DNA of 64,000 bases from Oscillatoria acuminata PCC 6304. Its GTDB lineage: Bacteria > Cyanobacteriota > Cyanobacteriia > Cyanobacteriales > Laspinemataceae. Positions 11,384-41,233 of the stretch are shown one piece after another. The notes under the pieces are model-generated. The model saw only the letters and a program-made list of their open reading frames with translations. It had not been told where the DNA came from and did no database searches. The stretch covers positions 3,839,227-3,903,226 of the forward strand of contig NC_019693.1 in the NCBI RefSeq assembly GCF_000317105.1. Reading direction: 5' to 3'. The position numbers and the translations under genes were made by a program. Positions within the stretch are counted from its first letter, which is position 1. The number at the start of each line of letters is the position of its first letter.

Positions 11384-12643
11384 CTAAGCATCGTCTTCCG
11401 ATTCATCGGCATCTGCCGCCCGAATCAACTCTTCTAGGTAAGCAATTATGGCCTCGCCCACTGCATCATTGCGGGACTGCTCGGTGTCTTTTCGGTGGGC
11501 GTAGGCGAGGGTCATCCAGCAGGCACCGCCACTGCTGACAACGGATAAAATTAGGAAGAATAGGGGAAATCCTAACCCGGCAATATCGCCCTGGGTTAGC
11601 TTGTGATGGAGGTTAACCATCGCGAGACGAATGGTTTCCGTACCCGATCGCAGGTCGTAATTCTCATCAAAATGGCGGGCAAATAATTCGGGCATTTGCT
11701 GTTGTAAGAACAACACGTCATCGCCTAACTCATGGCGCTTGGCTAATTTTTCGTTCCATCGTTGTTGAGCTTCTTCCTTGGTTGCTGCTGCTTCCCGTTG
11801 CAGTCTCAACATTCGCTGTTCCAGGGGTAAATTTTCTGTGGGTACAGAACTCCAATCGCGATCGCGATTTTCCCAGGTACCGAATAAGCGAGTGTAGAAG
11901 GTATTCCAATTCGGATGGCTGCGAGACATTCCTTGAAACTCCTGGAAAGCGGCTTCATATTCTTGGCGGGCGCTTTCATAAGCGGTACTGGTGGCGGGCA
12001 TATCCTCCAGATTTTGAGTGAGGCGATCAATCTGCTCGATCGCCTTAAGTTGGCTGAGTTCGGGACGATTATTCATCGCCTCGCTCCCTACAGCAGCGGC
12101 GATCGATTGCAGAGTTGACATGGCAATCATTGCTGCTGCTGCCGCTTTCGCCCAGTTGTGGTTACCATATTTGCGTCCGGCGACAGCAGTGCCGTTGTCA
12201 TTGGTAAACTTGATAATCAGCAGGTTAAGAGTCAGACTCGCCGTCATTGCCGGGAGATTGCCAAAATCTTTGAAGGCAAAGAATAGTATGGGTTGATTGG
12301 TGATGGCGTTCAGCAAGCTACCAATGCTAATGACACGAGCGGTTAGTTGGGAATGTTCTACTAGCTCTGCGGTAGCGATGTTTTTGCCGTAAAACTCTTC
12401 TGGGTTGGCAAAAATGAGACTTACCAGAAATAACCCTATCTTCTGTCCGGTCCGTTGGAAAGGATTGGCTTTGGGGGGAGGTTGTAACAGTTCTGGATGC
12501 AGTTCCCGTAAGGTTTGGGCTGCTTTTTTTGCTTCCTCTTTAGCCTTGGGAATGATGAAGGAGTGGAAAGATTTATTCATGATTGTGGATGGGTAAAGTT
12601 CTGGGATTTTTTGAAGAGAATTAACTTGCTGGCATCTACCCAC
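11384..12643 (-). CDS. Hypothetical protein (possible membrane-associated, coiled-coil middle region)
   Basis: 419-aa ORF; hydrophobic segments near both ends. The true start may be the internal Met (MNKSF...). Confidence 0.35.
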   Translation of the reverse strand: MGRCQQVNSLQKIPELYPSTIMNKSFHSFIIPKAKEEAKKAAQTLRELHPELLQPPPKANPFQRTGQKIGLFLVSLIFANPEEFYGKNIATAELVEHSQLTARVISIGSLLNAITNQPILFFAFKDFGNLPAMTASLTLNLLIIKFTNDNGTAVAGRKYGNHNWAKAAAAAMIAMSTLQSIAAAVGSEAMNNRPELSQLKAIEQIDRLTQNLEDMPATSTAYESARQEYEAAFQEFQGMSRSHPNWNTFYTRLFGTWENRDRDWSSVPTENLPLEQRMLRLQREAAATKEEAQQRWNEKLAKRHELGDDVLFLQQQMPELFARHFDENYDLRSGTETIRLAMVNLHHKLTQGDIAGLGFPLFFLILSVVSSGGACWMTLAYAHRKDTEQSRNDAVGEAIIAYLEELIRAADADESEDDA

Positions 12644-13064: not shown

Positions 13065-13580
13065 TTAGTCACAGGGGATGATGAGCATCATATTATTGTT
13101 ATCGCCTCGAATTTCCAGGGCGATCGCCTTCTCGCCCAAAGCCTTGCCCATTTCGTGATAGCCCTGCAACATCGTCCCTAAATGTTGCTGTAGAACATCC
13201 CCGGTAATGTAAGCCTGTACTAGCAAAATCGGCTCGGGGATCCAAGTTTGATGACTGGGGTCGAACCAATTTCCATCAGACGGAACAACGTTATACCCTT
13301 CTGCTGGTCGGTTGACCTTTTCAATCCAAGGTTTGGCCTGAGAATATAGGTGACTCGGAATATGCACGAGAAGCGCAAAAGGAAGTTGATTGGCTTGAAT
13401 TTTTGAAACAGCGATCGCCTCTTGGACCATCTCGCTCAAGGATTTAGATCTGGTGATCGCCTCTTGGACCCTCTCATCGAATCTTAGTGGGCCTGCCTGA
13501 GAGGATTTTGGCGTTTCAGGACAACACGGTTCGGTTGTCACCCCTAGACCGAGCAACAGCTTTTTGCTAATATTGTTCAT
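13065..13580 (-). CDS. Hypothetical protein
   Basis: 171-aa ORF; contains a short internal direct repeat (VQEAI..SK twice). Confidence 0.35.
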   Translation of the reverse strand: MNNISKKLLLGLGVTTEPCCPETPKSSQAGPLRFDERVQEAITRSKSLSEMVQEAIAVSKIQANQLPFALLVHIPSHLYSQAKPWIEKVNRPAEGYNVVPSDGNWFDPSHQTWIPEPILLVQAYITGDVLQQHLGTMLQGYHEMGKALGEKAIALEIRGDNNNMMLIIPCD

Positions 13581-13662
13581 AAGTTAAATATTGTCGGAAT
13601 CAAATTTCCCTCTAAGCGATTGCCGTCGCCGAGGGATGGACAATTCAAAGATGCGATCGGGC

Positions 13663-13700
13663 TGGAGCTGGAAAACTCCAGCGCGATTTTTTAATGATAT
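13663..13700 (+). promoter_or_regulatory. Hairpin + T-run upstream of the AAA-like operon (attenuator/terminator-like)
   Basis: GCTGGAG-ctggaaaa-CTCCAGC followed by GCGATTTTTT. No plus-strand gene upstream, so it is not an ordinary terminator. A TATAAT at 13803-13808 lies 20 nt before the ATG. Confidence 0.3.
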
Positions 13701-13828
13701 GCTTAGGTAACAAAAACGTCAAGTCACTACGCAACTTTTTAAATAACCACGCAATTTTTATGATCACTGATACAATTTCTGTTTTCTATGTACACATTAA
13801 GCTATAATGGTACACTGGCATCGAATCT

Positions 13829-15223
13829 ATGGTCCAGCGACAAGTTATGAACGCTCAAGCCTTCCAAGACCGAGTAACGGCTCTGAAAGCAAAAAAGAAG
13901 ACTTACAAGGTTTTAGCCACATTTCTCCAAACGGGCGGAGACTTTGAGCAAACTGCCGCCCAAAGCGGCATCAAAGAAGGAACTGTCCGAAAACACTTGT
14001 CTGAGATCTACACAATCTTCAAGATTGAGGGAAGCAAGCAAAAGCGGGAGCGTCTCATCGCCTTGTTCAGCCAGTACCAACCGGAGTTAGTCAACCCAAA
14101 GAAGCGTATGGACAAAGTAGAGCGGCTGACAGGCATTGTTCCCCTGGGTTCGCCCTTCTATATCCAACGAACCGAATACCAGATCATTCAGCAGGCTTTT
14201 GAATCTTGTCCTGAAGATCGTTTAGTGTTTTGTCGCCTCCGCAGTGCCAGAGGTCTGGGCAAATCTTCTTTATTGATCAGGCTGCGAGAGTTTCTCGAAG
14301 AAGATCTCGGTCACGCCGTAGGATGGGTAGACCTTTCACAGGGGACCACGGGGGTGTTGCAAGACTTCCCCAGTTTATTGAAAATCTTTACAAAAGCCGT
14401 CGCCCAAGAATTTGCCTGCGCCTTGCCCCACCTGTCTCTGTCCCTACCCGATTTACAACAAAACCACTGGCGAGAAGACCTCGCCCCAGGCACGAATTGT
14501 ATGGACTACTTAGAACAGTATGTTTTTAAACCCATTCATGAATCACCAGCAGGCCGACCCCTGACTCTAATTATTGAGGGGATCGACTCTCTGCTTGGGC
14601 AAGAAAGAATACAGTCACCATTTCTTGAGTGGCTCAGAGCTTGGAATGAGAGAAAAATGAAGCGGGTCAGCCGATCTCCAGTAATCTGGTCGAATGTGGT
14701 AATTGCCTATTCCACTGAACCCTATGCAGCTTATGAAATGGCCGGTTCTCCGCTGGATAACCTCGGTTTACCGATTGAATTGAAAGAATTCGACCGACAG
14801 CAAGTCTGTGACTTAACCGAGCGTTACGGATTAACTTGGCATAACGATCAACCAGAAATTGAGAAATTAATGTCCTGGATGGGCGGCCATCCCGAACTGC
14901 TCAATCGATCTTTGTATGCAATGCGGACCGAAAATTTAACATTAGATAGCTTTTTGGCATCCGTGACTCAACCGGGCAGTCAGTTCAACAGTTATTTGCA
15001 AGGGTATTTAAAAACACTACAAGACCATCCAGCTTTGGGGGACTGTTTCCGAAAAATCATCAAGGGCCAGCCCTGTAGTAACCGATTCAGTATTTTTCAA
15101 CTAGAAAAATGTGGATTAATCAATTTCGATGCTCAGAATCAACCTAAACCTCGTTTTAAATTATATGAGGAGTATTTTAAGCAGCATCTTAAATATTTTC
15201 CGCCGACTACAGATGAGGCATAA
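13829..15223 (+). CDS. LuxR-type HTH + AAA-like (PF14516-type) NTPase domain protein
   Basis: N-terminus 'TYKVLATFLQTGGDFEQTAAQSGIKEGTVRKHLSEIY' resembles a GerE/LuxR HTH. It is followed by 'GSPFYIQRTEY...RLRSARGLGKSSLLIRL', which matches the cyanobacterial AAA-like domain signature (sPFYveR...PRqmGKTSLL). Confidence 0.7.
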   Translation: MVQRQVMNAQAFQDRVTALKAKKKTYKVLATFLQTGGDFEQTAAQSGIKEGTVRKHLSEIYTIFKIEGSKQKRERLIALFSQYQPELVNPKKRMDKVERLTGIVPLGSPFYIQRTEYQIIQQAFESCPEDRLVFCRLRSARGLGKSSLLIRLREFLEEDLGHAVGWVDLSQGTTGVLQDFPSLLKIFTKAVAQEFACALPHLSLSLPDLQQNHWREDLAPGTNCMDYLEQYVFKPIHESPAGRPLTLIIEGIDSLLGQERIQSPFLEWLRAWNERKMKRVSRSPVIWSNVVIAYSTEPYAAYEMAGSPLDNLGLPIELKEFDRQQVCDLTERYGLTWHNDQPEIEKLMSWMGGHPELLNRSLYAMRTENLTLDSFLASVTQPGSQFNSYLQGYLKTLQDHPALGDCFRKIIKGQPCSNRFSIFQLEKCGLINFDAQNQPKPRFKLYEEYFKQHLKYFPPTTDEA

Positions 15224-17093
15224 AGAATTAATGGAGACTTACTATCAAGGTATTCATGGCGGGACACTGCCCCTGGAAGCGGCAACCTATGTGGAACGGG
15301 AAGCAGACCAAAGATTATATAATTTTTGCAGATCTAGCTCCAATGTGGCCCATGTTTTGGCGGCGCGACAGATGGGGAAGTCCAGCTTAATGGTGCGGGT
15401 GGCTGATCGCCTCCAACAGAATGGCAACTTTTGCGTTCAGGTGAACCTACAACAACTGGGTTTGGAACAGAATGGGAGTCCAGAACAGCTTTATCCGAGT
15501 CTGCTATGGGAAATCGAAAAATCTTTGCAGCCCCGAACTGCTAAAGATTTACGGCAGCGGTTAAATACTTTTTTGGATGAACTGCCCCCCGATATTGCTC
15601 CCGGTTTGAAATTTCGGGAAGGGCTAGAATTTTTGCTTTCAGAAGTGGTTCCAGAGTCCTGCCAATTGGTTATATTTTTAGATGAAATTCAACATCTGAT
15701 TTCCTGGAACTTACAAAATAATTTTCTGGGCTTTCTGAAAGCGATCGCCGGAAACCCCATTTTTGCTAGAGTGAAATTTGTGGTTTTGGGGGTAGCTCGT
15801 CCTGCGGATATTCTCACCGATCCGCAATTTGCCTTCAATGCTGTTTATCCAATTGAATTGACAGGTCTGCGTGGGGATTGTCCCCAACTGCTGCGGGGCT
15901 TGGAACCAGTCAGCCAGGACCCCGAAGCGGTACTTCGAGAAATTTTAAGCTGGACAGGGGGCAAGCCCTTTTTGACCCAACTCCTTTGTGATGTAGCCGT
16001 TCACGAACTTCACCACCTTCCTGCCGAAGAACTACCGGACCAGATAGAATTTTTAGTCAAAAATCATCTGTTCCAGGACTGGCGCAGGAATGATCGTCAA
16101 TCACATTTTCAAGAGATTGAACGCTGGTTTAAAAACGGTTATATTACGATTAAAGAACGCCAAAAAGCCCTTAAACTCTACTCATCATTGTTGATGCAGG
16201 GTCGGGCGGAGGTGTTCAACGACAGTCCGGAGCAGTTTAGCTTGGTTATTTCGGGTTTGGCTGAGAAGCGAGACGGAATGCTGGTGATTGCCAACCGAAT
16301 TTATGAGCAAGTTTTCGATCAGACTTGGATCACCACAACGGAAGAATACTTAACCAGTATACAGGAAGAATTTATGGTCAGTGCAAAAATTTTGAATCGC
16401 GATGTTTATATCCTGATCGACCAAAGCGCCTCGATGGATATAACAGATCAGGGTAAAGATAAAACTCGTTGGCAGCTTCTAGCTGAAAACGTAGCGGGTG
16501 ATGTTAAAAATCTGATGCGTGATCGCAACGGTCGCAAGGTTTGTGACAAAGTAACTTTATATCTTTTTAGTCGAGATAGAAGTGGAAAACGTTTTGAAAT
16601 TGACGAAAAATCCAGCATTCAACGAAGCATATTTGATGAAAATTTTCCGGATTCCAATACTTATATTGCAAAAACCTTTGAAGCCTGTTTTAAGGAGCAA
16701 GAGCAAAGCCCTAAAACCGAGGCAAATAAAAATGGCGCATTCATTATCATTTACACAGATGGGATGCTAGATGATCGTTCTATCTTTGAGAAAAAAATCC
16801 GTCAACTTTCGGAAAACCTACCCAACGAAGAGGTTCTCAAAGTGGTGATGATTGGCGTTGGGGATGATGTCAGAAGTAATCCAAAACCTTTTTTGGATTT
16901 AGATTTCAATTTAACACAAAATAAGCATAACATTTTTATCTTTGAACTGGCTGATGAAATGGAGGATATTATCGATACTCTGGATCGCCAACTGAGTGGC
17001 AAGCCGGAAGATCAAGTTCCCAATTGGGTCAAGCAAAATTACCCGGACTGGTTCGCTAAATATCAGGATTTCCAAAAAACCCGTAAGCCCTAG
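15213..17093 (+). CDS. AAA-like (PF14516-type) NTPase fused to a C-terminal von Willebrand factor A (vWA) domain
   Basis: 'YVEREADQRLYNF...AARQMGKSSLMVRV' P-loop region is paralogous to the upstream gene; C-terminal 'VYILIDQSASMD...T...IIIYTDGMLDD' is a vWA fold with a MIDAS DxSxS motif. The start ATG overlaps the upstream stop (ATGAGGCATAA), so the two genes are translationally coupled. Confidence 0.7.
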   Translation: MRHKELMETYYQGIHGGTLPLEAATYVEREADQRLYNFCRSSSNVAHVLAARQMGKSSLMVRVADRLQQNGNFCVQVNLQQLGLEQNGSPEQLYPSLLWEIEKSLQPRTAKDLRQRLNTFLDELPPDIAPGLKFREGLEFLLSEVVPESCQLVIFLDEIQHLISWNLQNNFLGFLKAIAGNPIFARVKFVVLGVARPADILTDPQFAFNAVYPIELTGLRGDCPQLLRGLEPVSQDPEAVLREILSWTGGKPFLTQLLCDVAVHELHHLPAEELPDQIEFLVKNHLFQDWRRNDRQSHFQEIERWFKNGYITIKERQKALKLYSSLLMQGRAEVFNDSPEQFSLVISGLAEKRDGMLVIANRIYEQVFDQTWITTTEEYLTSIQEEFMVSAKILNRDVYILIDQSASMDITDQGKDKTRWQLLAENVAGDVKNLMRDRNGRKVCDKVTLYLFSRDRSGKRFEIDEKSSIQRSIFDENFPDSNTYIAKTFEACFKEQEQSPKTEANKNGAFIIIYTDGMLDDRSIFEKKIRQLSENLPNEEVLKVVMIGVGDDVRSNPKPFLDLDFNLTQNKHNIFIFELADEMEDIIDTLDRQLSGKPEDQVPNWVKQNYPDWFAKYQDFQKTRKP

Positions 17094-17292: not shown

Positions 17293-17796
17293 TCAAAGTT
17301 TCTCGGTCTCATCCTCAGAAACCGCTTGCAAAATCTGATGATACAGAGTTTCATTCACCCAATATTGGGCTTCTGCCATCATGGCATTTAACAGGGGTTT
17401 GACTTGGGGGATAATCCGGTTCTGTTTGGCTAAAATCAAAATCCCTAAAGTCCCAATTACATTTAATCCTAACTCTTGCGCCACTTTTCTAGCTCTTTTT
17501 TCATCCAAGATAACCCTGGGTTTTTGTTCAATCAATGCTAAAGCAATCACCTCCCTTTCCCCAGCATCTAATTGTGAAGGGATAGATTCTGGCATCTCCT
17601 CCACTGGCTGAACCTGAAGCCAACCGGCTTGAATCTCGTTAAGTATCGCTTCGGAGTTGGGAAATCGTGATTCAACTGTTTCTCCATAAACCGCTTGGGG
17701 AATGACCATTTCATTAAACAGGGATTTGAAGATGTCTAAGCGATTGATACTGGCAAAGTTAATCAAAGGGGTCGCATTACAAATTATTTTCAACAT
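17293..17796 (-). CDS. DUF3368 (PIN-like) toxin-type protein
   Basis: N-terminus 'ICNATPLINFASINRLDIF' is typical of DUF3368 PIN-like nucleases; overlaps the upstream small gene by 20 nt (TA-pair organisation). Confidence 0.65.
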   Translation of the reverse strand: MLKIICNATPLINFASINRLDIFKSLFNEMVIPQAVYGETVESRFPNSEAILNEIQAGWLQVQPVEEMPESIPSQLDAGEREVIALALIEQKPRVILDEKRARKVAQELGLNVIGTLGILILAKQNRIIPQVKPLLNAMMAEAQYWVNETLYHQILQAVSEDETEKL

Positions 17797-18046
17797 CCCA
17801 CAAGCCTGATTGAATCTCTTGGATGTCCTCGGCTAAATCATCTTGATTGTATTCTCGAACGATATGATTTTCTCCCAAGAGTTTCTGAAAGTCCCATACG
17901 GAATAATTTAACAACCGACGGGCTTGGCCAAAGGTAAAGATATTGTTTTGATAGAGTTGCATCGCAATTTGCTCCAGGACTGCGGTTTCACCTTGCTTAA
18001 TTAAGTCTATGGGAATTTCTATGTTGATGGTTTGCATCTCTATCAC
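17777..18046 (-). CDS. UPF0175-family antitoxin-type protein
   Basis: 89-aa protein directly upstream of and overlapping the DUF3368 gene. UPF0175/DUF3368 is a recurrent TA pairing. Confidence 0.6.
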   Translation of the reverse strand: MIEMQTINIEIPIDLIKQGETAVLEQIAMQLYQNNIFTFGQARRLLNYSVWDFQKLLGENHIVREYNQDDLAEDIQEIQSGLWDVENNL

Positions 18047-37026: not shown

Positions 37027-37797
37027 TTATGCATCCGGATCGATTCCTAATGCTCGTAACTTGGCGGCGAGGGCCTCTGCTCGGTCCCGTTCCTGTTGCG
37101 CTCGGTCCCGTTCCTGTTGCGATCCTTCCTGTTGCGCCCTTTCTCGTTCCTGTTGCGCCCTTTCTCGTTCCTGTTGCGCCCTTTCTCGTTCCTGTTGCGC
37201 CCTTTCTCGTTCCTGTTGCAATGCCACACGCCACTCCTCGGGCGTCAGTAACCGTTCCCCGGTATCCCCCCGATAAAAGATAATGAGCTTGCCTTCGACG
37301 GTTAACTGTAACCCCAAGGCGGTACTATAATTATCAGCGATCGCCTGATACTCTTTATTGTTCAGGCGATACCCCTGCAACTGTTCCGGTATCCACTCGC
37401 CCCTCGGGTCAAATAACCAATATTCCTCAACCCCCAACTGTTCATAGAAAGCTCTTTTAAACTCCATGTCCTGATTGCGGGTACTCGCTGAAGTCATCTC
37501 AAAAATCACCGAGGGTACTTGTCCTTCTTCCCAAATCTTATAATTATCCCGTCCCCCCGGTTGTACATTAAAAATAACCATCACATCCGGGGTAACTCGC
37601 ATCCGGGGATTCCCTTGGCAATAATACAGAAACTGGTCTCCTAACACCGTCGCCTGACGACCGATCAGGTATTGTCGCAACACCTCTAGGGTGACAAAAA
37701 GCGCATAGAGATGATCATAACTTTCTGCCAAAGGTTCGCCGTCTTCGCTGGGGTAGATAACCGGAGTTTGGGGTTGAATCTCTAGTTTTCCAGTCAT
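37027..37797 (-). CDS. Uma2-family endonuclease-like protein, tandem copy 3 with expanded ERERAQQ repeat tail
   Basis: Same core as copy 2. The C-terminus contains (ERERAQQ)x4 encoded by a 21-bp tandem DNA repeat (37076-37215). Confidence 0.8.
   Translation of the reverse strand: MTGKLEIQPQTPVIYPSEDGEPLAESYDHLYALFVTLEVLRQYLIGRQATVLGDQFLYYCQGNPRMRVTPDVMVIFNVQPGGRDNYKIWEEGQVPSVIFEMTSASTRNQDMEFKRAFYEQLGVEEYWLFDPRGEWIPEQLQGYRLNNKEYQAIADNYSTALGLQLTVEGKLIIFYRGDTGERLLTPEEWRVALQQERERAQQERERAQQERERAQQERERAQQEGSQQERDRAQQERDRAEALAAKLRALGIDPDA
37076..37215. repeat. ~7 tandem copies of a 21-bp unit (CnnTTCyCGTTCCTGTTGCGC) inside Uma2 copy 3
   Basis: Encodes the (ERERAQQ)n tail on the minus strand; in-frame (21 = 7 codons). 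Confidence 0.8.
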
Positions 37798-38368: not shown

Positions 38369-41233
38369 TTACTGCCACTCGCCTTGCAAGGTAAAGGCTG
38401 CCCAGTAGAAAGGGGCCTGCCACCGTTGTTGTTCCCAGAGTTCGATTTGGGCCGATCGCAAGGCAGCCGCGGGAGTTAACCCTTCTTGGAGCATTTTCTG
38501 GTAAAAATTCACCATCAGCCTTGCGGTGGCTTCATCATCCACACTCCACAGACTAACCAGGACCCGAGGCGCACCGGCATACATAAACCCCCGGGTTAAC
38601 CCCACTAGGCCCTCCCCTCGGATTTCCTGACCTAACCCCGTTTCACAGGCACTCAACACGACTAATTCCGCCGGTAAGTTAAGGTTAAAAATTTCATGGA
38701 GGCGCAAAAACCCATTTAACGGTTCCCCCTCTTGATTTAACAGGGAAAACACTAACCCCGATAACTCCGGATTCACACTATTCAGCAATCCGTGAGTAGC
38801 AAAATGGACAATCCGATATTGACTCAGTTCGGGATTAGTAGCCGCTTCGCGACTGGCTTCAAACCCGAAAGCTTTTCTACGTTCGGATTCGGGAACCAGG
38901 GCCAAAATTTCCTCGGCTTCGAGTTTGGTATAGGGGAGACGGCTAAATTCGACTTCCGAGGCACGAGTTCCGGTTTCAGATTTAATCCCGAGGGTGAGGG
39001 ACTCATCGGAGGCATTCGGTTGCAGGCGATCGTCGTAGGGAGTAAAAACCGGATCGGCGAGAACCGCTAGGGTTTTGCTGGCAGGTGTGCGTCCGGCAAT
39101 TTCTTGACGCAAGACGGCCATCGTGGAGGCAGAAGGTAAGCTGACGATTTCATGTTTGACGATTAAGGGCAGGTAACTGTCGCTGCCCTCCGGGGGATTG
39201 GGGATGGCGAGGGCAGCGAAGGGGATATATTGCAAGGCCCCATCACTGACAATTAGCAGGCGCTTGTCATCCCCGAGGAAGTCGGCAATGGGTCCGAGGA
39301 CTTTCTCGCTGAGGGCGGCAGAGGTTTGGGTAAAAATCGATCGCCGGATCCGCAGACTGGGAATGGTGAGGGCGTTTCTAAACTGTTTGGCAGCTTGTTC
39401 GATTTCTTCTCGGGGGGGCAGGGTGTAGCTGGTGAGGCTGGTTTTGGTAACCACCCACAGGTAACTCCGTTCTTTGCCGAGGGAATATTCCAGGAGGATG
39501 GTGTCATCATCAAGGACTTTTTCCTGGATTTGGGTGAGGGTGAGGGGTTGGGGTTGGGTGAGGGCGGCGTAGCGGGGGCTGGTGACACGCAGCAGGGTTT
39601 GGACTCGCCGGTATTGGGTGAGGAGGTCGTCAATTTCGGCGGCGAGGGCATCGGCTTGTTCTGGGGTATGAGGTCCAGAGAGGAGTTGGATGCGTCGTTC
39701 TTCTAGGGCGCTGAGTTGTTGTTGGATGCTACGTTCGCTGTCGAGGAGTTGGGGGTCGGCCCCTTGGCGGATGTCGGCGTTGGCTTCGTTGAGGATTTCT
39801 AGGAGACTGCGGGCGCGGCCCTGTTCGCTGGCTTGGAGGGCTTTGGCGTCAAAACCTGCGGTGGGCTGCTGTTGGTGCAGTTCCATGAGCAGGTCGATGT
39901 AGAATTCATAGTAGTCCTGGACTTTGGCGAAGAAGGAGGCGCGGGACTCCTGGCTGGCGACGTTGGTGCGGAGGTCCTCGGCGATCGCAATGGCGGTTTC
40001 GATTTCGGTGAGGGCCTTGTCGAGTTGTCCTTGATGCCGCAGGGCGACTGCGATCCGGTAGCGGGTGAGGGCTTCTTTGGGCCGATCGCCCACGGATTCG
40101 CGCAGGGGTAGGGCTTGGTGATAGTATTCCAGGGCTTTAGGGTTGTCACCGAGGGAGGCGTAGACGAAGCCGATGTTGTTGAGGGTACTGGCTTCTCCCC
40201 GGCGATCGCCTGCGCTTTCCCACAAGGGTAATCCCTGGTGATAGGTTTCTAAGGCAAGGGGATAGTCCCCGTCTTTGGCATAGACGAAACCCATGTTATT
40301 GAGGGTGGTGGCTTCTCCCCGGCGATCGCCGGCTGCTTGCCACAGGGGAAGGGCTTCGTTATAGCGATCGAGGGCTTTTTGTTTATCTCCTAATGCTTCG
40401 TAAACGTTGCCAATATTGTTGAGGGTGAGGGCAACGCCAGCGGTGTAGTCGAGTTCTCGATAGAGGGGGAGGGCTTGATTGTAGTAATCGAGGGCTTCTC
40501 GATATTGTCCTAAGTCGTCGTATATTTTACCGATGTTGTTATAGGTGACAGCTTCTCCCTGGCGATCGCCGGCTTCTTTCCACAGGGGGAGGGCTTCATT
40601 ATAGGAATCGAGGGCTTGTTGATATTCCCCTAGGGCATCGTAAACTGCCCCCCGTTCTATGAGGGCAAAGGCTTCTGCACTGGGGAGTTCGAGTTCTCGA
40701 TACAGGTCTCGCGCCTGATTATAAGCGTCCAGGGCGGGGGTAAAGGTCCCCAGTTCCGCATAACTGCGGCCTAGGTTAAACAGGACGTCAGCGACGCCGG
40801 GAAGGTCTTCTACGGCTTCTTTGAGGGTGAGGGCTTGTTGGAGGTAGTCGAGGGCTCCTTGGGGGTCGCGGGAGGCTTTGGCGACGAAGGCTAGTCCAAT
40901 CAGGGTTTCGGCTTCTAAGGATTGATCCCCGAGTTGTTGATAGAGGCTGCGGGCTTCTTGGAGTTTAGCGATCGCCGCGCTGAGGGCTTCGGGGGTGCCT
41001 TCTAGGAAGAGTTGCTCTCCTGCGCTAAAGGCGCGATCGGCTTGTTCTTCTAAGCTCTCTGGGGTAGTTTTTTCGGGAGAGTCGGTGAGGGTCACAACCG
41101 AGTCAGCCTGGGGTGCTGCAACGGCAACTCCGGGGCAGATCAGGAGGCTTAATCCCAGGGTGAGGTGGAGGACCGCCCGGGGGAGGCTGTCCGGGTATGG
41201 GTTGTGCTTGATGGGGTCTCCTCGATCGCTCAT
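38369..41233 (-). CDS. TPR-repeat / CHAT-domain (caspase-like protease) protein with signal peptide
   Basis: N-terminal signal; about 10 TPR units (ALxxYNQALPLWxxxGDRxGEAxTLNNIGxVY). The C-terminal CHAT domain carries the His/Cys dyad context 'HFATHG ... LVVLSACETGLG'. Confidence 0.85.
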   Translation of the reverse strand: MSDRGDPIKHNPYPDSLPRAVLHLTLGLSLLICPGVAVAAPQADSVVTLTDSPEKTTPESLEEQADRAFSAGEQLFLEGTPEALSAAIAKLQEARSLYQQLGDQSLEAETLIGLAFVAKASRDPQGALDYLQQALTLKEAVEDLPGVADVLFNLGRSYAELGTFTPALDAYNQARDLYRELELPSAEAFALIERGAVYDALGEYQQALDSYNEALPLWKEAGDRQGEAVTYNNIGKIYDDLGQYREALDYYNQALPLYRELDYTAGVALTLNNIGNVYEALGDKQKALDRYNEALPLWQAAGDRRGEATTLNNMGFVYAKDGDYPLALETYHQGLPLWESAGDRRGEASTLNNIGFVYASLGDNPKALEYYHQALPLRESVGDRPKEALTRYRIAVALRHQGQLDKALTEIETAIAIAEDLRTNVASQESRASFFAKVQDYYEFYIDLLMELHQQQPTAGFDAKALQASEQGRARSLLEILNEANADIRQGADPQLLDSERSIQQQLSALEERRIQLLSGPHTPEQADALAAEIDDLLTQYRRVQTLLRVTSPRYAALTQPQPLTLTQIQEKVLDDDTILLEYSLGKERSYLWVVTKTSLTSYTLPPREEIEQAAKQFRNALTIPSLRIRRSIFTQTSAALSEKVLGPIADFLGDDKRLLIVSDGALQYIPFAALAIPNPPEGSDSYLPLIVKHEIVSLPSASTMAVLRQEIAGRTPASKTLAVLADPVFTPYDDRLQPNASDESLTLGIKSETGTRASEVEFSRLPYTKLEAEEILALVPESERRKAFGFEASREAATNPELSQYRIVHFATHGLLNSVNPELSGLVFSLLNQEGEPLNGFLRLHEIFNLNLPAELVVLSACETGLGQEIRGEGLVGLTRGFMYAGAPRVLVSLWSVDDEATARLMVNFYQKMLQEGLTPAAALRSAQIELWEQQRWQAPFYWAAFTLQGEWQ

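Follow-up and report, generated by a model that had tools for sequence, protein, structure and literature searches.

The genes at the locus

We analysed a stretch of 64,000 nucleotides from the cyanobacterium Oscillatoria acuminata PCC 6304 (contig NC_019693.1, positions 3,839,227 to 3,903,226 of the forward strand), hereafter the window, which contains two overlapping genes, here termed A and B, that are predicted to encode a DNA-binding nucleoside triphosphatase (NTPase) and a second, paralogous NTPase with a von Willebrand factor A (vWA) domain. Gene A (13829-15223, +; 464 aa, with an alternative ATG start at 13847) combines a LuxR/GerE-type helix-turn-helix (HTH) domain with an NTPase of Pfam family AAA_35 that resembles the signal transduction ATPases with numerous domains (STAND), and gene B (15213-17093, +; 626 aa) an AAA_35-type NTPase with the vWA domain. 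The longest open reading frame (ORF) of B opens at 15129, its conserved N-terminus begins at the ATG at 15213, and translation might alternatively start at another in-frame ATG, at 15231; one homologue (P0003) has no methionine at the position of this downstream start. With the start at 15213, B begins within the last codons and stop codon of A, in an overlap of 11 nt (ATGAGGCATAA, 15213-15223, +), the last three bases of which are the stop codon of A.

The HTH domain of A spans residues 9-83 (13853-14077, +), as delimited by a profile match to GerE and by the helices of an AlphaFold model. Taken alone, the N-terminal 85 residues give Pfam HTH matches that are all sub-threshold (HTH_30, 21.7 bits). 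A profile of the A family (24 members) matches GerE (1fse, 3.7e-5) together with the DNA-binding domains of DesR, VraR and NarL, and the homologous HTHs of loci L055 and L005 match PF00196 (4.6e-11, above the cut-off, and 5e-5, respectively). The AlphaFold model of A (mean predicted local distance difference test (pLDDT) score 82.9) places helices at residues 23-34, 39-46, 50-63 and 72-83 with pLDDT ~90, i.e. a four-helix fold, in which EGTVRKHLSEIYTIF (aa 50-64; 13976-14020, +) is the modelled recognition helix. By both profile and model, the N-terminal domain of A is a LuxR/GerE-type HTH.

The remainder of A is an NTPase module comprising nucleotide-binding, helical and winged-helix domains (14132-15184, +), which matches AAA_35 (PF14516) over aa 102-452 and model columns 4-331 of 331 with E=5.8e-61 and 206.6 bits, against a gathering cut-off of 27 bits. 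Its Walker A motif is GLGKSS (14252-14269, +), its Walker B motif LTLIIEGID (14561-14587, +), with Gly opposite the catalytic Glu of B, and a GGHP motif follows at 14882-14899 (+). The corresponding module of B (15261-16367, +) matches AAA_35 partially (58 bits, columns 4-241 of 331), and carries the Walker A motif QMGKSS (15369-15386, +), the Walker B motif LVIFLDEIQ (15666-15692, +), in which D157 and E158 are invariant, and the motif TGGKPFLTQ (15954-15980, +). Downstream lies the vWA domain (16401-16952, +), which scores 26.9 bits against Pfam VWA (cut-off 23.8) and has the expected fold, a DxSxS motif, and Thr and Asp at the positions of the metal-ion-dependent adhesion site (MIDAS); this site consists of DQSAS from 16419, T483 within 16653-16667 and D516 within 16746-16763 (all +). 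Across 22 B homologues the Walker A GKSS, the Walker B D157-E158 and the MIDAS residues D403, S405 and D516 are invariant.

Comparison of the two families with hhalign gave a probability of 99.4% across 323 columns, and the NTPase modules of A and B are therefore, as judged by this alignment, paralogues. Their catalytic residues are not the same: the A subfamily has D/E-G in Walker B (E250-G251 in A itself), B an invariant D-E. Since E250-G251 of A aligns opposite D157-E158 of B, A lacks the catalytic glutamate, and is predicted from its sequence to bind nucleotide and hydrolyse it poorly. The broad A-type consensus retains D-E in Walker B, the D-G form being confined to the A subfamily that is paired with vWA or dynamin B-types. 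On fold comparison, AAA_35 is a STAND/Orc-Cdc6-like module made up of nucleotide-binding, helical (GGHP in A, TGGKP in B) and winged-helix parts: the NTPase is tripartite, a GxP motif is present and the fold is nearest to those of Apaf-1/CED-4, nucleotide-binding leucine-rich repeat receptors (NLRs) and MalT, with plant NLRs and CED-4 among the best fold matches and TnsC and MuB ranking below the STAND matches. The nearest family to the A and B NTPases is that of archaeal PF01637-type ATPases. Among solved structures, profile searches identified no AAA_35 protein; they gave matches only for the HTH and the vWA, plus a weak one to 2fna. The single-chain effector-NTPase-sensor layout of STAND proteins is absent from the window, where the HTH and the presumed sensor vWA are carried by separate paralogous NTPases.

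The initial annotation of this DNA had described two paralogous AAA-like P-loop NTPases in tandem, the first with a LuxR/GerE-type HTH and the second with a complete vWA domain and DxSxS MIDAS, and had raised a possible STAND- or ORC-like relationship as well as the chance that the N-terminal domains are not NTPases at all. Both modules prove to be NTPases, and the domain assignments and the suspected fold relationship are all upheld by the matches above.

Pairing and co-inheritance of A and B

The vWA part of B was scanned against one genome per species (185,579 species), and all ORFs of the returned loci were searched by phmmer with four domain queries. The scan returned 80 loci, all cyanobacterial. 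An AAA_35-vWA gene is present in 24 loci, the window included, and in 17 of these an HTH-AAA_35 gene lies directly upstream; in the remaining seven it belongs to a larger cluster, which also includes two genes for GTPase-like proteins and one for a membrane protein. The larger cluster begins with a winged-HTH-AAA_35 gene, followed by one for an AAA_35-dynamin-like GTPase (~1,140 aa), one for a GTPase of 328 aa that weakly matches DO-GTPase2, one for a 266-aa protein with an apparent terminal membrane-spanning segment (read from the sequence) and, last, the vWA gene. In L009, L010 and L057, where the flank extends far enough, an A-type gene can be seen, and L011 and L018 show the AAA_35-dynamin gene, which follows the A-type gene. 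When the look-up was made from the A side, each of five proteins (P0129, P0131, P0132, P0134 and P0135) was found to be directly followed by a B-type gene. Neighbourhood analysis, which the initial annotation had proposed as a check, finds A and B kept together across Oscillatoriales, Nostocales and metagenomes, and the pairing is far beyond chance.

The junction between the genes is itself conserved. The identical 11-nt overlap occurs in seven loci (the window, L001, L004 (with GTG), L006, L013, L090 and L091) and persists down to 42-44% identity of the vWA region of B, whilst most other pairs have an overlap of 8-23 nt or a gap of 1-28 nt, and those of Nostoc a gap of 124-343 nt. The position of the second start within the last codons of the first gene, already noted in the initial annotation, thus recurs in distant relatives, and the start/stop overlap suggests translational coupling.

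Fusion proteins link the same domains in other arrangements: in L005 the HTH, the A-type NTPase and the vWA are joined in a single protein of 721 aa, HTH-vWA proteins without an NTPase occur in 19 loci, and L042 encodes an HTH-NB-ARC-vWA fusion. These fusions therefore indicate that HTH and vWA work together. The one-chain effector-NTPase-sensor form is found only in L005 and, with NB-ARC, in L042; from the order of the domains, the vWA appears to sit at the C-terminal sensor position of a STAND protein.

Some further observations concern these loci. The larger cluster, of which we found no description, occurs in L008-L012, L018, L022, L025, L034, L039, L045, L046, L050, L051, L056, L057 and L062, its extra genes lying ~3-9 kb upstream of the vWA gene; a search of the window for its two GTPases and membrane protein found no copy, and the window has no AAA_35 gene beyond the A/B pair. 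Fusion partners of the vWA family of B further include an EACC1-type caspase and SAV_2336-N with an FGE-sulfatase domain (L052 8363-10792; L003 8312-11557), as well as HTH(XRE)-NB-ARC (L042 8834-10681). In a metagenome-assembled genome (L014 7480-10864), A and B are split into several ORFs, representing either a decayed copy or sequencing frameshifts.

Direct repeats upstream of gene A

The region upstream of A contains the hairpin with a T-run reported in the initial annotation, which we locate at 13661-13692 (+; GCTGGAG...CTCCAGC, terminator-like). No plus-strand gene lies upstream of it; it stands between a divergent 171-aa gene (13065-13580, -) and the repeats described below, and recurs in the close relative L001. 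A candidate operator (13728-13754, +) follows, made up of the heptamer TACGCAA at 13728 and its direct repeat CACGCAA, 20 bp further on at 13748, with weaker in-phase copies at 13770 (ATACAAT) and 13791 (TACACA), both on the plus strand. A -10-like TATAAT (13803-13808, +) precedes the ATG of A by 20 nt and is not accompanied by a good -35 hexamer; it may be the promoter of A, although a consensus promoter scan called no promoter at this position. Rfam gave no match in the locus or in the whole window.

The repeats were first spotted in a manual alignment of the 200-nt upstream regions of A from 16 loci. In 11 loci, A is preceded by direct repeats of TACGCA(A) that recur every 20-21 bp. In 1.39 Mb of fetched DNA, TACGCA occurs at 0.23 per kb, and the paired form [TC]ACGCA-N9-18-[TC]ACGCA has 16 occurrences, compared with a mean of 2.2 and a maximum of 7 in simulations; 15 of the 16 paired sites directly precede an HTH-AAA_35 gene or the gene for the L005 fusion. 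Presence of the repeats co-varies with the recognition helix of A. All 11 A proteins with the helix G-T-V-R-K-x-x-S-x-x-Y have them, those with A/T-T-V-R-[KS]-H-I-x-x-x-C (L013, L037, L082 and the Nostoc loci L028 and L064) have no repeat or one, and A-type proteins with a different N-terminal domain likewise have none or one. In a blind test on loci fetched after the motif had been defined, repeats were found in each of the four loci for which they were predicted (L081, L089, L090 and L091), just upstream of the real start of A, and in none of the five for which absence was predicted (L082, L084, L087, L088 and L092).

A related half-site accompanies the HTH-vWA genes, which have the upstream palindrome TACACA-NN-TGTGTA. 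Six copies occur in 1.48 Mb, four of them just upstream of HTH-vWA genes (L055 9509; L063 568; L073 9582; L080 1662) and a fifth 39 nt before gene A in L037 (7390). The half-sites are palindromic for the simple HTH-vWA proteins, and head to tail, two helical turns apart, where the HTH is joined to an NTPase. From this comparison we infer that the HTH family of A recognises TAC[GA]CA and autoregulates, and that A itself would bind the repeats.

Two additional TACGCA arrays were noted, each of which may mark a further target: one in L005 (7807-7856, -), ~350 bp upstream of an S8 subtilase gene, and one in L090 (1267-1292, -), ~210 bp upstream of a gene for a weakly vWA-like protein of 305 aa.

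The wider AAA_35 family

An exhaustive search with the A-family profile returned 8,789 cluster representatives, of which 2,393 reach E<=1e-30. Most of the best 150 of the 8,789 are of 420-480 aa, and 51 are longer. In most of these 51 the A-type NTPase is at the C-terminal end; a few extend C-terminally, as in P0205, which has a cyclase domain C-terminal to the NTPase. The extra domains carried by the 51 are TIR (13), protein kinase (8), nucleotide cyclase (8), CHAT (6), sigma-r4 HTH (5), caspase (3), GerE HTH (3), EAD4 (2), trypsin-like (2) and GGDEF (1), and two of the proteins have the architecture HTH-TIR-AAA_35. B relatives, conversely, begin with the NTPase and continue with a PAS, GAF, REC, CHASE2, WD40, TPR, periplasmic-binding or cNMP-binding domain. 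The two classes therefore appear from their architectures to have opposite fusion polarity, A-type proteins mostly with N-terminal effectors and B-type proteins with C-terminal sensors.

Pairs with other domains have similar layouts. L082 encodes GerE-AAA_35 and, after a 69-nt gap, AAA_35-GAF-GAF-PAS; L084 and L088 encode BTAD-AAA_35 and AAA_35-WD40 with a 4-nt overlap; in L087 an HTH_VMAP-M9-AAA_35 gene is divergent from one for AAA_35-CHASE2; and in L092 an A-type gene is followed by AAA_35-dynamin. In L094 (4501-10763) genes for caspase-AAA_35, HTH-AAA_35 and a B-type protein stand in a row. One REC-PAS-AAA_35 protein has no partner gene. A side observation in L094 is a 223-aa gene after the B-type gene that duplicates the helical part of the B-type protein.

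We put forward, as a tentative generalisation that we hold with less confidence than the reading of the window pair given below, that AAA_35 may be a large, undescribed bacterial family of paired NLR-like switches, in which an NTPase with a C-terminal sensor (vWA, WD40, GAF/PAS, CHASE2 or dynamin-like) and a paralogous NTPase with an N-terminal effector (HTH, TIR, caspase, CHAT, kinase or cyclase) would form translationally coupled hetero-oligomers. Such a family would be the prokaryotic counterpart of the plant paired NLRs and of NAIP/NLRC4; the output of its member in the window would be an ordered assembly of HTH domains on repeats two helical turns apart, and the system may detect infection.

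A proposed split switch and its alternatives

For the pair in the window, we favour, with a probability of about 0.5, a reading in which a STAND-like (i.e. NLR-like) switch that depends on nucleoside triphosphate is split into two halves, A and B. B would be the input half, in which the NTPase has intact Walker A and Walker B (DE) motifs and the MIDAS vWA would bind a signal, most probably an acidic residue on a peptide or protein ligand. A would be the output half, with Walker A kept, Gly in place of the catalytic Glu, and an N-terminal HTH that would recognise the TACGCAA heptamers. Activation would bring the active NTPase of B and the hydrolysis-poor one of A together in a joint assembly, aligning several A subunits head to tail on direct repeats approximately two helical turns apart; on the repeats upstream of the A-B operon this assembly would result in autoregulation, and other promoters in the genome are probably controlled too. 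The domain identities, the paralogy of the NTPase modules, the co-inheritance and tight coupling of the genes, and the conserved repeats with their dependence on the recognition-helix sequence are established by the comparisons above; within this scheme we infer the binding of A itself to the repeats, the A-B hetero-oligomer, the role of the vWA as sensor rather than adaptor, the direction of regulation (activation or repression) and the biological signal.

Several points weigh against this proposal. Binding of A to the repeats and contact between A and B are deduced wholly from comparative genomics and predicted structures. The paired site in the window, considered alone, is not significant (1 against 0.21 expected, with 19 of 100 shuffles reaching it), and the weight of the operator case lies in conservation across genera rather than in the window alone. 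The distance from repeat to start codon varies from 26 to ~100 nt, so that activation and repression are indistinguishable on this basis; the Nostoc A-B pairs (L028, L064), with intergenic distances of 124-343 nt, are without the motif; and beyond the operon itself there are just two single candidate targets, the S8 peptidase gene of L005 and the vWA-like gene of L090. Furthermore, the vWA might serve as adaptor or output instead of sensing, and in A-type relatives that have both an HTH and a TIR domain the HTH may merely autoregulate or anchor the protein to DNA.

The main rival to the split switch differs from it in biological role more than in mechanism, and holds that A-B is a conflict or immune module, i.e. 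an NLR-like sensor of an invader (phage or rival cell), in which the HTH only autoregulates or tethers the complex to DNA and the output is delivered by proteins recruited by the vWA or encoded elsewhere. Because close A relatives carry TIR, caspase and CHAT domains (with EAD4 and trypsin-like domains also represented amongst the longer proteins counted above), a possible defence role gains indirect support; the existence of HTH-TIR-AAA_35 proteins, the caspase-AAA_35 gene that adjoins the A-B pair of L094, the fusions of the same vWA family to EACC1-type caspase and to SAV_2336-N with FGE-sulfatase, the filamentous cyanobacterial hosts, and the toxin-antitoxin modules of three families found 3' of B in the window, L081 and L091 all point the same way. 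However, neither A nor B of the window has an enzymatic effector domain, PADLOC offers two weak partial matches only and NCBIfam none, scans of IMG/VR viral contigs with both family alignments found no relative, and many B relatives carry ordinary signalling domains (PAS, GAF, REC, CHASE2, cNMP-binding, periplasmic-binding). Clustering of ~3,100 ORFs from 81 loci, moreover, revealed no conserved neighbour family beside the pair except A and B themselves. On balance we consider the conflict reading rather unlikely, if clearly ahead of the explanations that remain.

These others are all weakly supported. The layout of Mg-chelatase ChlI/ChlD, known as two paralogous P-loop ATPases of which one has a C-terminal MIDAS vWA and one a degenerate site, could suggest a remodelling machine of this or of the MoxR-vWA kind, in which an ATPase ring or stack works on a substrate gripped by the vWA and the HTH sets expression; yet the fold is STAND/Orc-Cdc6-like rather than of the MoxR/chelatase clade, A and B have no MoxR-type Pfam match and no MoxR-type gene lies nearby, HTH-vWA fusions exist without any ATPase, and the exchange of vWA for WD40, GAF/PAS or CHASE2 in B relatives fits a sensor position, which together make this reading improbable. 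Still less credible is a transposition or target-selection module with TnsC- or MuB-like ATPases, for which the direct repeats would be transposon-end sites. Arrays ~20 bp apart do resemble Tn7-type ends, but the window neighbours include no transposase match and the loci no recurring family beside the pair other than A and B, O. acuminata and strain HE19RPO have retained synteny, and the lower rank of TnsC and MuB amongst the fold matches also disfavours it. The repeats as transposon ends were rejected, the array being one-sided, with no inverted array downstream of B in any locus. Equally hard to credit is that A and B are two independent paralogues side by side without a functional link: AAA_35 genes are numerous in cyanobacteria, so that some adjacency by chance or by tandem duplication is expected, whereas here the A-then-B order is kept across genera with overlapping reading frames, fusion proteins exist, and the two classes differ in fusion polarity and catalytic residues.

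Relation to known systems

The closest analogues of the proposed switch amongst regulators are MalT and the other large ATP-binding LuxR-type regulators (LAL), and the Streptomyces antibiotic regulatory proteins (SARPs) such as AfsR, which join a STAND-type NTPase to a LuxR-type (in SARPs OmpR/BTAD-type) DNA-binding domain; the likeness to SARPs extends to the BTAD-AAA_35 relatives. In MalT, ligand- and ATP-dependent oligomerisation leads to cooperative binding to arrays of asymmetric, directly repeated boxes. These regulators are, in contrast to A-B, single polypeptides, and MalT has its HTH at the C-terminus and a helical-repeat sensor. In A-B the HTH is N-terminal, the sensor (vWA) is on a second, paralogous NTPase and the NTPases belong to AAA_35, i.e. 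the LAL/MalT layout of N-terminal STAND ATPase, SUPR sensor and C-terminal LuxR HTH is reversed in domain order and divided between two genes; the NCBIfam MalT model matches neither A nor B. The division of labour proposed here is found in paired NLRs (RGA4/RGA5 and RRS1/RPS4 in plants, NAIP/NLRC4 in animals), in which adjacent paralogous STAND NTPases provide sensing and output and form a hetero-oligomer. Those pairs are, however, eukaryotic, have NB-ARC or NACHT NTPases and lead to cell death or inflammation, whereas the output of A-B would be the HTH, and its hetero-oligomer is predicted.

ChlI/ChlD (BchI/BchD) and the MoxR-vWA systems RavA-ViaA, CbbQ-CbbO and NorQ-NorD resemble A-B in having a pair of related P-loop ATPases, one C-terminal MIDAS vWA and one degenerate site, and differ from it as classical AAA+ rings of the MoxR/chelatase clade without an HTH. 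Antiviral STAND proteins (Avs, bNACHT) differ in being single proteins with a nuclease, SIR2 or similar effector. The conflict systems of Kaur, Burroughs, Iyer and Aravind (2020, PMC7159879; 2021, PMC8195603) share with A-B the filamentous cyanobacterial setting, the combination of NTPase and vWA and highly variable fusions, including the caspase and sulfatase fusions of the vWA family of B and the TIR, CHAT, caspase and EAD4 domains of A relatives. Their MoxR, VMAP, iSTAND and GAP1 components are, by contrast, not part of the A-B module, and no MoxR, VMAP or iSTAND match of a MoxR-vWA ternary system was found in A, B or the genes within ~5 kb. Neither paper mentions AAA_35 or dynamin, and DO-GTPase systems are described as nearly absent from cyanobacteria (Kaur et al., PMC7159879, PMC8195603).

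Searches of model libraries and literature gave a consistent result. PADLOC-DB 2.0 yielded only weak partial matches (A at 0.0084, B at 3e-5 to PDC-S01), with no domain passing alone, and no NCBIfam model matches A or B in a search that covered both and six neighbours. PF14516 is absent from the searchable literature, 'AAA_35' occurs there only in unrelated text, and a search for an AAA-like domain with cyanobacteria and vWA returned nothing relevant. The initial annotation did not recognise this two-gene architecture as a described system, and no description of it was found in the searchable literature, PADLOC or NCBIfam. The parts, namely STAND-like NTPase, LuxR-type HTH and MIDAS vWA, are known; the split, coupled A/B architecture, its generality across AAA_35 and the TACGCAA operator were found nowhere in these sources.

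Neighbouring genes and other features of the window

The initial annotation had also pointed to a neighbouring toxin-antitoxin pair (DUF3368 and UPF0175) and a DUF4058 gene; these identities are correct, but the genes are not conserved partners of A-B. Since no neighbours are conserved, the module is self-contained, and the toxin-antitoxin pair, DUF4058 and the unknown genes are context rather than components. A pentapeptide-repeat cluster (c18) was considered as a conserved partner and set aside as probably reflecting shared synteny or repeat similarity. The neighbours of stand-alone vWA and HTH-vWA genes are housekeeping genes (KsgA, sigma factor, ChlM, kinase) and uninformative.

An opposite-strand toxin-antitoxin pair lies directly 3' of B in three loci, of a different family each time: DUF3368/UPF0175 in the window (17293-18046, -; PADLOC candidate PDC-S70), HicAB in L081 (9448-9884) and PemK in L091 (4995-5580). 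A PD-(D/E)xK-type gene comes next after the pair in the window (DUF4058) and in L081 (PDDEXK_2), and this region 3' of B may be a variable region of the genome. On the other side of the locus, a 419-aa gene (11384-12643, -) is matched by PADLOC model PDLC01074 'C3a124', of unknown function, at 6.8e-87 and by no model of Pfam or NCBIfam; it is not conserved beside A-B pairs elsewhere. More distant features of the window are a perfect 21-bp tandem repeat of 4.5 copies within a 256-aa ORF (37126-37219) and 2.8 copies of diverged 120-bp repeats within a 954-aa ORF (40311-40645), the latter where G+C is high and GC skew strong (39-41 kb).

Implications

If the split sensor/effector reading is true, bacteria, and above all filamentous cyanobacteria, would use paired NLR-like NTPases, which have so far been discussed for plant and animal immunity. 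The locus described here would then be a convenient entry point to these systems: its output would be DNA binding, with a clear candidate operator (13728-13754), and the switch should therefore be readable by promoter-reporter or gel-shift assay rather than by cell death. The swapping of sensors and effectors between paired NTPases would, moreover, provide a framework for the roles of the thousands of genes annotated as 'AAA-like domain-containing protein'.

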